The notes: generated from the letters alone by a model not told the origin. DNA of 64,000 nucleotides from Tepidiformaceae bacterium (GCA_965200565.1 OZ241349.1:485724-549723), one strand, 5' to 3'; shown: positions 32,797 to 35,054, counted from the stretch's first letter. Numbers and translations are program-made.

Positions 32797-33699
32797 ATGG
32801 CAACTGGAGCCGTACGACGAGCGGTCATCCTGGCGGCCGGACTGGGGACACGAATGCTGCCCGCGACCAAGTCCGTGCCCAAGGAGATGCTGCCGATCGT
32901 GGACCGGCCCATCATCCAGTACGCGGTGGAAGAGGCCGTGGCCGCCGGCATCGAGGAGATCGTGCTGGTGCTCGCTCCCGACCGCGGGGCCATCCGCGAG
33001 CATTTCGGCGGCGGCTCGCGCATCGAGCGGGTCGCGCGGGAACGGGGCGACGACTGCCTCGTCGAGCGCGTGCGGGCGCCCGAACGGCTGGCACGCTTCA
33101 CGTTCGTGGAGCAGCGCGAGCCACTGGGCACCGGGCACGCGCTTTTGCAGGCGCGCGCGCAGCTGGAAGGCGAACCGTTCGCCGTACTCTTTCCCGACGA
33201 CGTCATCCTGGGGGCGTCCTGCACGGCAGAGCTGGCGCAGGCGTTCACCGCGTACGACGCCGCCACCGTGATCGCCGTGCAGCAGGTCGCACCGGAGCAG
33301 ATTCCGCAGTACGGCATCGTCGATCCGCTTGGCGACCCCGTGGGCGAAGGCGATCCCCTGCGCCTGCGGGGCATTGTGGAAAAGCCGGCTGTTGCGACGG
33401 CGCCCTCGGACCTCGGCGTCGTGGGGCGCTATGTGCTCGGGCCCTCGATCTTCGAGCGGCTCGAACGGATCACGCCGGGTGCGGGCGGCGAACTGCAGTT
33501 CACCGACGCGCTGGCGGCGCAGATCGCCGACGGCGAGGCGGTCTACGCCAGCCGCTTCAGCGGGCGTCGCTTCGACGCCGGCAGGCCGGCGGGCGCCATT
33601 GCGGCGGGAGTCGCCGCCGCTCTCGACCGAGAGGAGCTGCGCGATGACGTCGCGGCCCACCTCGCCACGCTCACACCATCACCATCGGAGCAGGAATGA
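32797..33699 (+). CDS. galU: UTP--glucose-1-phosphate uridylyltransferase
   Basis: AVILAAGLGTRMLPATKSVPKEMLPIVDRPIIQY signature. Start called at ATG 32797. Confidence 0.9.
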   Translation: MATGAVRRAVILAAGLGTRMLPATKSVPKEMLPIVDRPIIQYAVEEAVAAGIEEIVLVLAPDRGAIREHFGGGSRIERVARERGDDCLVERVRAPERLARFTFVEQREPLGTGHALLQARAQLEGEPFAVLFPDDVILGASCTAELAQAFTAYDAATVIAVQQVAPEQIPQYGIVDPLGDPVGEGDPLRLRGIVEKPAVATAPSDLGVVGRYVLGPSIFERLERITPGAGGELQFTDALAAQIADGEAVYASRFSGRRFDAGRPAGAIAAGVAAALDREELRDDVAAHLATLTPSPSEQE

Positions 33700-35054
33700 T
33701 GCGCATCCTCACCATCGGCTACTCCCTCCCCAATCCGCTCGTGGATAACCACACGGTGCTGAACGCCCCCAGCATCACCGACTACGACGCGGCCCTGATC
33801 GATCCCGAGAGCATCACAACGACGATTGGGCAGATGCTCGAGGGGGAGCGCCCCTTCACCGCTGCCGATGGGCGGCCGATCGTGAACGGCGCAACCACCG
33901 CGACACAGATCTCCGCCGCCGACCAGCTGCAACGTCGGGCGGAAGAGGCGGAGCAGCTGCTCGACCAGGGGGGCGTCATCTTCCTGGTGGGACGCCCGGA
34001 CGCGACCATGACCGGGGTCGTGGGGTTTGAGGGCTTTCATCGCTACCACTGGCTGCCGGCGCCCAAGGGGGCCAGCTGGAACCCGCCCCACCTGCGCGCG
34101 GCGGAGGGCAAGACGATCCGTATCGCCGACGACCACCATCCGCTCAGCGCGGTGCTGCGCGAGTACCGCCGCCATCTCACCTACCGCGCGGCCCTGCACC
34201 CCGACCTCGTGCGAGGCGGTACGACAGGCAGGCTCATCGCAACGGGCGGTTCCGCGGTCCCCATCGCGGCCGAGTTCCCCGTGCTGGCGGGACGCGTCGT
34301 GGTAACGCCCGTGTTCGCCAACGTCACGGGGCAGACGCGGGTGAAGCTGGCGCAGGCGCTCGTGGATGCGATGAGCGCCGTGGCGACAGGCGTCACGAAC
34401 GAAGACCCGCCGGGGTGGGCTCGCACCCACGCCCTTCCCACGCTCGAACAGATCGAGGCGGAGATGGAGGAGGCGCAGCAGGAGGAGCAGGCCGCTGCCG
34501 CCCGCACCACCGCCATCCGCGAGCGGCTGGAAGCGCTCACCGACCACCGACGGCTGCTGTGGGCGTCGGAGCCCACCTTTACCAGCGCAGTGCGCGAGGC
34601 TCTGACACTGCTCGGGCTCACCCCCACGAGCGGCGTGGGCGAAACCCTCGCCGTGACCGAAGGCGAGCACACGGCCCTGGTCGAGGTGGAGAGCGCACGC
34701 GAGGAGGTGGCCGAGTGGCCCTACGTGCGCCTGCAGCGTCGTCTGGAGCGCCACCTGCTCGACGAGGGCGAGCAGCTGAAGGGCATCATCGTCGCAAACG
34801 GGAAGCGCACCATCACCCCGACTGCGCGTCGCGGACAGACCACCGACGCGCTACGCGTCGCCTGCGAGAATTACGGCTACGCGCTCATCACGGGGGACAC
34901 GCTCTTCGCACTCGTGCAACGGGCACTGGGCGCGGAGGCGGAGGGAACGCCGCTCGAAGCCGCCGGACGACGCCTGCTCTTCGGCACAGGCCTGATCACC
35001 GCCGAGCAGGCGCTGGGCGAAGCAGAAGAAGCCGACGACGCAAGCATCTTCTAA
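33696..35054 (+). CDS. hypothetical 452-aa protein (N-terminal alpha/beta region, central coiled coil, C-terminal restriction-endonuclease-fold-like region)
   Basis: Long ORF with ordinary amino-acid composition and an ATGA overlap with the galU stop. No family recognised (see findings). Confidence 0.6.
   Translation: MMRILTIGYSLPNPLVDNHTVLNAPSITDYDAALIDPESITTTIGQMLEGERPFTAADGRPIVNGATTATQISAADQLQRRAEEAEQLLDQGGVIFLVGRPDATMTGVVGFEGFHRYHWLPAPKGASWNPPHLRAAEGKTIRIADDHHPLSAVLREYRRHLTYRAALHPDLVRGGTTGRLIATGGSAVPIAAEFPVLAGRVVVTPVFANVTGQTRVKLAQALVDAMSAVATGVTNEDPPGWARTHALPTLEQIEAEMEEAQQEEQAAAARTTAIRERLEALTDHRRLLWASEPTFTSAVREALTLLGLTPTSGVGETLAVTEGEHTALVEVESAREEVAEWPYVRLQRRLERHLLDEGEQLKGIIVANGKRTITPTARRGQTTDALRVACENYGYALITGDTLFALVQRALGAEAEGTPLEAAGRRLLFGTGLITAEQALGEAEEADDASIF

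Follow-up and report, generated by a model that had tools for sequence, protein, structure and literature searches.

NucS/EndoMS is a two-domain repair nuclease, a RecB-like PD-(D/E)xK mismatch endonuclease, in which an N-terminal DNA-binding barrel is combined with a C-terminal nuclease fold and a C-terminal sliding-clamp-binding motif. An N-terminal sensor-like domain followed by a C-terminal nuclease fold is the logic of Cap4, the Card1/VC1899-like proteins, Cdn1, Hachiman HamA and Shedu SduA, effectors whose N-domains are of the SAVED, CARF or DUF1837 type. The Hma/DUF499-centred BREX-related (BR) systems consist of three core components, the SNF2 helicase-nuclease HmaA, the DUF1156 methyltransferase HmaB and the DUF499 ATPase HmaC; the hmaB-hmaC interval is a documented insertion hotspot for defence genes, and auxiliary PD-(D/E)XK nucleases have been reported to be embedded in these loci (PMC11232893; PMC12839542). 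Here we describe an open reading frame (ORF), called gene X below, at positions 33696..35054 (+) in a stretch of 64,000 nucleotides (nt) from a Tepidiformaceae bacterium (GCA_965200565.1 OZ241349.1:485724-549723; "the window" denotes this whole stretch), where it directly follows a galU-like gene. In its product, the residues of which are numbered according to a version of 452 amino acids (aa), a sensor-like part and a PD-(D/E)xK fold occur in a combination of domains for which we found no description, and the protein belongs to a galU-coupled clade that is apparently domesticated.

NucS/EndoMS was the best structural match of the X C-domain, and in both proteins the nuclease fold is the C-terminal one of two domains. 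A G-I-h-h-A-N motif in beta4 is common to X and to a NucS_C gene that is also present in the window, and D...E-x-K...Q is found in deep branches of the family, some of which have QxxxY as well, as in RecB-like nucleases. X differs in its N-domain, which is glutamine-amidotransferase-like instead of a DNA-binding barrel, in the coiled coil between its domains, and in the absence of the catalytic Asp and Lys from the clade around the window protein. At the C-terminus, where NucS has its clamp-binding motif, X carries a conserved x-I-F tail that may bind a clamp, an SSB partner or something else. Furthermore, X had no match to PF01939 (Pfam, E<=1), whereas the NucS_C gene of the window was found by Pfam, and the two compared with each other by hhalign gave a probability of only 1.7%. 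The C-domain is NucS-like in its modelled fold, yet X, as far as these profile comparisons assign it, is not a member of the NucS family.

The sensor-nuclease effectors are represented among the fold matches of X by Cap4, VC1899, Cdn1 and HamA, and deep X branches are found in defence-type contexts. However, the N-domain of X is not one of theirs, X branches lack PADLOC and Pfam matches (none of the component models of PADLOC-DB v2, including those for Shedu, Hachiman, Lamassu, Septu and Hma, matched X), and the window clade is represented by a core operon gene without the catalytic motif. In four deep-branch loci (L011, L012, L013 and L105) X lies next to or between the DUF1156 and DUF499 genes, but it is not one of the three core Hma/BR components, a DUF1156 or DUF499 neighbour is absent from most of the family and from the window clade altogether, and the X family is named in neither PMC11232893 nor PMC12839542. 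The N-domain has its fold in common with class I glutamine amidotransferase-like proteins (2gk3, the GH42 middle domain, PabA/TrpG and peptidase C26); the triad of the amidotransferases is absent, and in this X resembles non-catalytic members such as the GH42 middle domain. In BamHI, the site consists of D94, E111 and E113, with the Lys replaced by Glu. The window clade keeps an acid-only set as well (E/D316 and E330-x-E332), homology between the two being limited to the superfamily fold; in the relatives of X the Lys sits two residues past the second Glu, and the acid-only state of X is therefore a loss and does not represent an established alternative design of a catalytic site.

The explanation that we consider best, to which we give about an even chance, is that the window protein is an exapted defence-type nuclease-fold protein in a core role linked to nucleoside diphosphate sugars (NDP-sugars). 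X would be a two-headed protein, in which a coiled coil links a non-catalytic glutamine-amidotransferase-like domain to a PD-(D/E)xK-fold domain. The ancestral form would have been a mobile, single-gene DNA-cutting defence protein with a full nuclease site, scattered in other lineages. One copy would have been captured directly 3' of galU in the ancestor of a Chloroflexota (Dehalococcoidia/Tepidiformales) lineage, and the galU-X operon would thereafter have been passed on vertically and translationally coupled. In the window clade, canonical catalysis would have been lost, strong purifying selection would then have acted for a new role, and new invariant surfaces would have arisen, namely the EWPYVRLQRRLE helix, ACENY and the acidic ...PIF C-terminus. 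X would be made in a fixed ratio with uridine diphosphate glucose (UDP-glucose) pyrophosphorylase and would work in some process connected with the supply of nucleotide sugars. The direction of this change follows from the canonical motif, which defines the superfamily; therefore, the motif-bearing mobile form would be ancestral and the Chloroflexota form derived.

Fold and family of X

The original prediction, which was made from the sequence alone, called X an orphan of no recognised family. The latter agrees with our searches, in which X had no match in Pfam, NCBIfam, PADLOC (E<=1) or the PDB sequences, the profile of its C-domain found nothing among the PDB sequences, and the X family found no match in PHROGs. 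Ten distant family members gave nothing with Pfam, and ten diverse members gave only two chance-level coiled-coil matches with PADLOC (E<=0.1). No Pfam, NCBIfam, PADLOC or PHROGs model covers this unnamed family, and literature searches found no prior description of its three-part architecture, in which a coiled coil lies between a glutamine-amidotransferase-like domain and a NucS-like PD-(D/E)xK fold. X had no PF00483 or NCBIfam match either, so it is not of the GalU/GalF family by homology; as a partner of GalU, should it be one, it would be of a new kind.

The term orphan, in contrast, has to be given up, because X belongs to a sizeable conserved family. A search of a collection of 5.8 billion proteins yielded at least 200 full-length homologues with 49-76% identity, and the named close ones were all entered as 'hypothetical protein' from Chloroflexi, Dehalococcoidia, Tepidiformaceae or Thermoflexaceae. 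An exhaustive HMMER search of 1.84 billion representatives put the size of the family at 420 clusters with E<=1e-3, of which 184 reached E<=1e-10, and the full-length relatives extended down to ~22% identity. Among 33 aligned homologues, the mean column identity was 65%, with long invariant blocks that include EWPYVRLQRRLE and ACENY. These homologues, the column identity and a neighbour-like GC content (0.68-0.71, equal to that of galU and the surroundings) bear out that X is a real protein, and every peptide segment quoted in the original prediction was found in its translation. For the comparisons below, 306 full-length members were grouped by identity to the window protein into a distant group (<30%, n=85), a middle group (30-45%, n=53) and the window clade (>=45%, n=168). 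Two longer proteins, P0021 (599 aa) and P0171 (620 aa), were considered as GalU-X fusions of the Rosetta-stone type and rejected, as their junctions are long, of low complexity and apparently out of frame. A frameshift or a wrong gene call has probably produced them, and the adjacency of galU and X is still shown by both.

All three parts of the proposed architecture were upheld by the AlphaFold2 models, Foldseek and heptad analysis. In the full-length model, which was built from the family alignment and had a mean pLDDT of 87.4, residues 1-231 form an alpha/beta domain. Its best PDB match by Foldseek was STM3548 (2gk3; E 1.2e-4, probability 1.0, target-normalised TM-score (TMt) 0.42); the other matches included lin1909 (3fij), PabA (8rp0), 2a9v, 7d53, GH42 middle domains, SpuA and HTS, with modest TM-scores of 0.39-0.49 when normalised by target length. 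The N-domain has the three-layer alpha/beta/alpha fold of class I glutamine amidotransferases, and all of its PDB matches are of this flavodoxin-like type, in line with the flavodoxin/Rossmann-like sandwich that had been expected. Pfam gave no GATase match for X, and a Cys-His-Glu triad at the nucleophile elbow was not found: no Cys reaches 80% conservation across the family, and residue 100, which follows strand 94-98 and precedes a conserved P101, varies (R/Y/S), from which we conclude that the amidotransferase triad is absent. Residues kept family-wide include D29, D31, D36-P37, R81, E84, Y117, W119-L-P121, G138, H148-P149, G199 and P205, with conservation across the 306 members of 0.96 for D29, 0.86 for D31, 0.93 for R81, 0.98 for E84, 0.94 for Y117 and 0.86 for H148. 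Toprim-like and receiver-like readings of the acidic residues were rejected, since the motif order does not fit and such folds are missing among the Foldseek matches.

The N-domain is followed by a linker in which P239 and W241 are 99-100% conserved in the family, and by one long helix (residues 250-284 of the model). The hydrophobic a/d positions of this helix (250/253/257/260/264/267/271/274/278/281/284/288) have the 3-4-3-4 spacing of a coiled coil over ~38 residues. This spacing is family-wide and strongest among distant members, in which seven of the a/d positions are strongly hydrophobic in 66-91%. The coiled coil of the original prediction is thus supported by both the model and the spacing, and X is probably dimeric through it.

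The C-domain modelled by itself had a pLDDT of 90.5 and a pTM of 0.87, and its topology according to DSSP of the models is alpha-beta-beta-beta-alpha-beta-alpha-beta. Nearly all of its top 25 PDB matches by Foldseek were PD-(D/E)xK proteins, with NucS 2vld (probability 1.0, root mean square deviation 3.0 A over 117 columns, query-normalised TM-score (TMq) 0.46) and EndoMS 5gke (probability 0.99) accompanied by AF1548, VC1899, Hjc, Cap4, Cdn1, HamA and EndA. Matches in a viral structure library were 'Restriction endonuclease', Mrr and PD-(D/E)XK proteins, none of them full-length. The C-domain therefore has the core fold of the PD-(D/E)xK superfamily, on which modelled topology and Foldseek agree, and the core on which the nuclease-fold proposal depended is present.

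Residues of the nuclease-fold site

The register of the site was fixed from the alignment of the 306 full-length members and from a C-domain-only alignment. The distant branches carry P-L-E-x-A-V in alpha1, (E)(H/F)D in beta2, E-x-E-G-K in beta3 and a Q in the next helix, in some cases as QxxxY, a motif set that by its residues is RecB/NucS-like. Of the five canonical positions of the site, the window clade has lost three, namely Glu in alpha1, Asp in beta2 and Lys in beta3. The alpha1 Glu, which is T296 in the window protein, is present in 68 of 85 distant members; in the middle group the position is E in 31 and D in 7 of 53, and Glu is found in only 13 of 168 members of the window clade. Position 317 is D in 70 of the 85 distant members and P in 47 of 53 and 134 of 168 members of the middle group and the window clade, respectively, the latter having D in none of 168; in the Chloroflexota clades, this loss of the beta2 Asp is accompanied by a deletion of 4-5 aa. 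The preceding position 316 is H, F, Y or W in the distant group and E or D in 141 of 168 members of the window clade (84%). At position 334, the distant group has K in 35 and R in 15 of 85, the window clade has no K (0/168), and the window protein has A334, in agreement with the codons of its beta3 segment.

The window protein, with T317 and E332-S-A334, lacks the canonical catalytic motif of a beta2 Asp and a beta3 (D/E)-x-K. The original prediction had the Lys changed at E-V-E-S and, consequently, an inactive or variant site. The catalytic Lys is indeed absent and the canonical motif is gone, but the register of the Lys is A334 and not E332, and the loss is broader than had been noted, since it includes the alpha1 Glu and the beta2 Asp. 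To judge from these residues, the window protein is probably no longer a canonical nuclease.

Other positions of the site are retained. E330 was found in 165 and E332 in 163 of the 168 members of the window clade; in a subclade (P0135, P0138, P0146 and P0150), E332 or E330 is also gone, while the remaining protein is retained. The beta4 motif and the loop that follows it are the most conserved part of the whole family, with conservation across the 306 members of 0.98 for G363, 0.97 for N368, 0.94 for R371 and 1.00 for R378. The remaining E330, E332, N368, R371 and R378, together with the new E/D316, make up a putative acid-plus-Arg pocket that appears to be under strict selection. Retention of the first five of these suggests binding of a metal and of a phosphate-bearing ligand, and X probably binds such a ligand (nucleic acid, or a nucleotide or NDP-sugar), likely with the metal. 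It has been reported that inactive restriction-endonuclease-fold domains frequently act as nucleotide sensors (PMC12839542).

In addition to E/D316, the window clade has gained the EWPYVRLQRRLE helix, ACENY and an acidic C-terminal tail. In the helix, E340, W341, Q347, R348, R349 and E351 are present in 168 of 168 members, Y343 in 167 and R345 in 165. The tail, of which residues 444-452 have a pLDDT <50 in the AlphaFold2 model, ends in x-I-F in 163 of 168 members and in x-L-F in 4 more, and this motif is missing from the other identity groups. This ending resembles a short linear motif of the docking type. The beta-clamp motif is QL[SD]LF, to which the PIF tail did not match, and this candidate was rejected. 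The C-terminus of SSB is the partner-docking tail of a DNA-metabolism protein, and the likeness of the PIF tail to it is a resemblance only.

Gene linkage and the role of X

The gene upstream of X is GalU-like, as had been predicted: it matched PF00483 (NTP_transferase, E 3e-30) in Pfam, and its best NCBIfam match was TIGR01099 galU (E 5.7e-78), with 262 bits under the equivalog cut-off of 326.8. Its mechanical ORF begins with TTG at 32692, and the ATG at 32794 is the likely start. For X, the candidate starts are 33696, with a 4-nt ATGA overlap, and 33699, with a 1-nt TGATG overlap. The second ATG, which gives a protein of 451 aa, is probably the true start, because homologues open with MR[ILV]L and most have 451 aa. 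With either start X is translationally coupled to galU. The ORF, its 452 aa and the overlap with the galU stop that had been described are all present, but the overlap is more likely 1 nt than 4. A promoter and terminator scan around galU-X found no promoter-like sites and one terminator-like site, which lies within galU and is below the shuffle counts. On the other side of X are an opposite-strand AsnC-type gene and lepA. The AsnC-type gene (35095..35331, -) is convergent with X and encodes a stand-alone Lrp/AsnC ligand-binding-domain protein of 78 aa (PF01037) without a DNA-binding domain, and it is kept between X and lepA throughout the clade of >=45% identity.

In a scan of 185,579 species genomes, 127 relatives were found; the best 80 of these 127 were used as reference-genome loci, 78 of them with upstream sequence. 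Seventy-seven of the 80 carry Chloroflexota-type labels, the exceptions being L056 (Hyphomicrobiales) and L070 and L082 ('bacterium' only), and cultured Tepidiforma flava is among the 80, with strain YIM 72310 (L046, within NZ_CP115149.1:327711-341105). The L056 contig (JBLNCO010000282.1), which is labelled as a Hyphomicrobiales metagenome-assembled genome, has the full Chloroflexota-type rplT-rpmI-infC / galU-X synteny with 52% identity, and its label is probably due to bin contamination. In seven loci of ~50% identity, the arrangement was infC-rpmI-rplT (divergent), galU-X, and the small AsnC-type gene with lepA (convergent).

In 69 of the 78 loci, the gene immediately 5' of X and co-directional with it is galU, and these include 19 divergent ones (30-38% identity) without the infC/rplT/lepA synteny. 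The two genes overlap in 33 of the 69 pairs (by 1 nt in 18, by 4 nt in 13, and by 10 and 13 nt in one each); the gap is 0-15 nt in 29 and 16-35 nt in 6, and one value is an artefact, so that an overlap or a gap of at most 15 nt is found in 62 of 69. Of the nine loci without galU, two have another sugar-1-phosphate nucleotidyltransferase (NTP_transferase and LbH domains; best NCBIfam matches rmlA_long and AglF, sub-cut-off) directly upstream of X, and one has glmS (L020:3725-5578, +, 754 bits) directly upstream on the same strand, the gene for the first enzyme of UDP-GlcNAc synthesis. The position beside a housekeeping galU, which had been called unusual for defence and DNA-transaction proteins, is instead the most conserved property of the clade. 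Since galU-X outlasts the flanking synteny and the partner is swapped for other enzymes of its pathway, a functional tie to nucleotide-sugar synthesis is favoured over gene order that was merely inherited, and X may be coupled to GalU physically or in its regulation. We also observed that a gene for a FabI-like enoyl-ACP reductase (adh_short_C2) is located directly 3' of X on the same strand in all five divergent loci examined (30-35% identity), and this galU-X-fabI arrangement places another envelope-precursor gene in the cluster. Members of the window clade were not found on IMG/VR contigs, and the clade, with its fixed synteny, absence from viral contigs and native GC content, does not have the mobile or defence-rich neighbourhood and the patchy distribution of a defence gene.

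The deep branches are found in different surroundings. One of them, with proteins of 460-496 aa, is homologous to the window clade over its full length (hhalign probability 99.6%, E 3e-24, 400 columns). In two of its loci (L011 and L012), X lies between the DUF1156 methyltransferase and DUF499 ATPase genes, 3' of genes for an SNF2 helicase and a zeta-toxin-like kinase; a third (L013) has the same layout with an AAA_21/DUF4276 pair nested between X and DUF499, and in a fourth (L014) X adjoins a protein with a weak TIR_2 match. X of this branch was also found on ten IMG/VR contigs, where its neighbour is a CI repressor, an integrase, a minor tail protein, a P2-type GPA or a KAP NTPase. For a second deep branch, 60 metagenome loci with 132 neighbour ORFs were sampled, and none of these loci had galU, rmlA, glmS or fabI as a neighbour of X. 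One of them (L105) has the order DUF1156-DUF499-(296-aa ORF)-X, an independent association with DUF1156-DUF499. Recurrent among the 132 ORFs were Phage_integrase, TaqI_C, Eco57I, N6_Mtase, MmeI_Mtase and PIN, and a resolvase, PDDEXK_3 and a Cap15 receptor domain were among the families that occurred once; ordinary housekeeping genes were present between them. Housekeeping genes also surround three members of the P0223-type branch. The deep branches are sparse, with clusters of one or two sequences. Such a profile is that of a mobile accessory gene without an obligatory partner, whose role is probably in defence, and the deep branches are probably stand-alone, single-gene DNA-cutting defence nucleases. 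Thus, the earlier suggestion that the combination of coiled coil and nuclease fold belongs to the defence class applies to the distant branches and not to the window gene itself.

Two further observations concern the DUF1156-X-DUF499 loci. The kinase gene of the zeta-toxin/AAA_33 family lies within the operon (L011:3001-3525 and L012:4457-4981). The zeta-toxin family includes UDP-sugar kinases, and this is a second association of the X family with nucleotide-sugar enzymes, which may be coincidental. In L013 (6031-15970), the DUF1156 and DUF499 genes each appear to be split, being matched in two adjacent pieces, and we may be looking at a defence hotspot that is in decay or undergoing recombination.

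Several points weigh against the exaptation of X into an NDP-sugar-linked role. The Foldseek E-values are modest (1e-2 to 1e-4), and all TM-scores, whether query- or target-normalised, are below 0.5. The defence role of the deep branches is drawn from genomic association alone. In 6 of the 78 loci (L015, L017, L019, L040, L090 and L094), X has no NDP-sugar gene beside it, although in L015 the upstream ORF was not picked. The galU linkage is confined to one phylum and could therefore be in part inherited gene order. Finally, with E330 and E332 almost invariant and E/D316 in 84% of the clade, an acid-only site could still cleave. This last point leads to the main rival, in which X is an active non-canonical nuclease with a BamHI-like metal site of E/D316, E330 and E332, places R345, R348, R349, R371 and R378 on the DNA backbone and has a housekeeping role in repair, recombination or self/non-self recognition, galU being its neighbour through operonic hitch-hiking. 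Both Glu residues have been kept despite the loss of Lys and Asp and an acid has been gained at 316, the fold is nearest to that of a repair nuclease, many Arg residues are conserved, and the acidic PIF tail recalls partner-docking tails such as that of SSB. We nevertheless regard an active nuclease as rather unlikely, since three of five canonical positions have changed, one of them by a deletion in the beta2 motif, and the subclade without E332 or E330 has kept the remaining protein. Hitch-hiking, moreover, hardly explains that galU is replaced by genes of the NDP-sugar pathway (RmlA-like, glmS) and not by random genes, or that the pair persists where the flanking synteny is gone.

It is also conceivable, though improbable, that the N-domain is the business end of the protein, where D29-x-D31, R81, E84, Y117 and H148 would serve an enzyme or a sensor for UDP-glucose supplied by GalU, and that the degenerate nuclease-fold domain is a nucleic-acid tether, for example in DNA or RNA glucosylation or in UDP-glucose-gated nucleic-acid binding. 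The conserved N-domain residues are polar or charged family-wide, the coupling to galU is tight and its substitutes are NDP-sugar enzymes, and the defence operons of L011 and L012 contain the zeta-toxin-family kinase. However, the same residues are conserved in deep branches that have no galU link and are therefore not specific to a UDP-glucose function; the only glycosyltransferase matches by Foldseek were those to the I. album beta-1,2-glucosyltransferase, listed with GH42 enzymes, the remaining ones being glutamine-amidotransferase-like and several of them non-catalytic; and a motif as short as D-x-D may occur by chance. Defence genes are typically patchy, mobile and fast-evolving. That X itself is an anti-phage protein with galU beside it incidentally is highly improbable, because it is a gene of a fixed core operon, immobile and of native GC content, that has lost the catalytic motif; its tight operon with a housekeeping gene in the 80 species-level genomes, its absence from viral contigs, the strong conservation of its homologues (49-76% identity) and the lack of a PADLOC match point in the same direction, even though its distant homologues occur in defence islands, prophages and Hma hotspots, and the order of sensor-like domain, coiled coil and nuclease fold resembles that of Cap4, HamA and the Card1-like effectors among its fold matches.

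Exaptation is the reading that we prefer as the most economical one. A more specific version of it, which is quite doubtful, is that X couples nucleotide-sugar status to a nucleic-acid transaction through the degenerate nuclease-fold head and the coiled-coil dimer, binding or using UDP-glucose or another NDP-sugar; sugar modification of DNA or RNA and UDP-glucose-gated binding or cleavage would be examples. If this were true, such a sensor or modifier would connect, in a way that is new, the metabolism of envelope precursors with genome transactions in Chloroflexota. In the window clade, an immune-type nuclease seems clearly to have been exapted as a gene of a core operon, in steps that can be ordered: Asp and Lys would have been lost, next the alpha1 Glu, and last the Arg-rich helix and the C-terminal docking tail would have been gained. 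That X is lastingly paired with GalU, an RmlA-like enzyme or GlmS suggests that Chloroflexota have a factor, so far unrecognised, which acts along with nucleotide-sugar synthesis, an idea that is testable because Tepidiforma flava is cultured. The deep branches, with their P2-type prophages, Hma/BR hotspots, restriction-modification surroundings and intact D...E-x-E-G-K...Q, may well represent a new anti-phage system that consists of a single gene; P0300, L095 and the copy in the P2 prophage of L101 are examples of their members.

Feature coordinates and other genes of the window

Table 1. Features of the galU-X locus (positions in the window) and FabI-like genes 3' of X in other loci
Feature	Position	Strand	Remarks
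galU-like UTP--glucose-1-phosphate uridylyltransferase gene	32794..33699	+	first gene of the pair; PF00483 and TIGR01099 matches
Gene X	33696..35054	+	452 aa (probably 451 aa); three-domain protein of an unnamed family
Stop/start junction ATGATG	33696..33701	+	galU TGA at 33697-33699 within gaATGATGcgc
N-terminal alpha/beta domain	33696..34400	+	residues ~1-235; class-I-glutamine-amidotransferase-like fold
Linker and heptad-repeat helix	34410..34571	+	P239-x-W241 motif; helix ~246-292, predicted coiled coil, Glu/Ala-rich in the window clade
C-terminal PD-(D/E)xK-fold domain	34572..35015	+	residues ~293-440; NucS/RecB-like in fold
Lost beta2 Asp site, E316-T317	34641..34646	+	(E)(H/F)D in distant homologues; Pro or Thr in the Chloroflexota clades
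beta3 remnant, E330-V-E332-S-A334	34683..34697	+	aligns with E-x-E-G-K; both Glu retained, Lys gone
Arg-rich helix after beta3, E340-W-P-Y-V-R-L-Q-R-R-L-E351	34713..34748	+	clade-invariant
beta4 and loop, G363...N368-G-x-R371...P375..R378	34782..34829	+	most conserved motif family-wide
Disordered acidic tail ending in x-I-F, with stop codon	35016..35054	+	DDASIF here; consensus DAGPIF
FabI-like gene after X	L021:7355-8158
FabI-like gene after X	L035:3252-4148
FabI-like gene after X	L053:7449-8243
FabI-like gene after X	L076:7347-8138
FabI-like gene after X	L087:7377-8189

The canonical NucS_C gene of the window (38367..39056, +; PF01939, E 4.5e-9) is located 3.3 kb 3' of X and has textbook motifs (GRVDITA ... 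VIEFK ... GQILSY ... GILIAN). It is broken by an in-frame TAA at 38823-38825 and is therefore a pseudogene, the result of a sequencing error or expressed by read-through. Its surroundings are low in GC content (0.565-0.593 at 38.4-39.6 kb, against ~0.66-0.71 around), which suggests a horizontally acquired islet. The adjoining ORF at 39053..39526 (-) has a PIN/VapC-like N-terminus (MRVLLDSNAY...) and a C-terminal half that is rich in Pro, Ser and Arg and looks out of frame; it had no Pfam match and may be a frameshifted toxin gene beside the broken NucS_C gene. A further toxin gene, of the ParE family (27887..28216, +; PF05016, E 2.4e-10), lies ~5.5 kb upstream, beside a MiaB-like radical-SAM gene.

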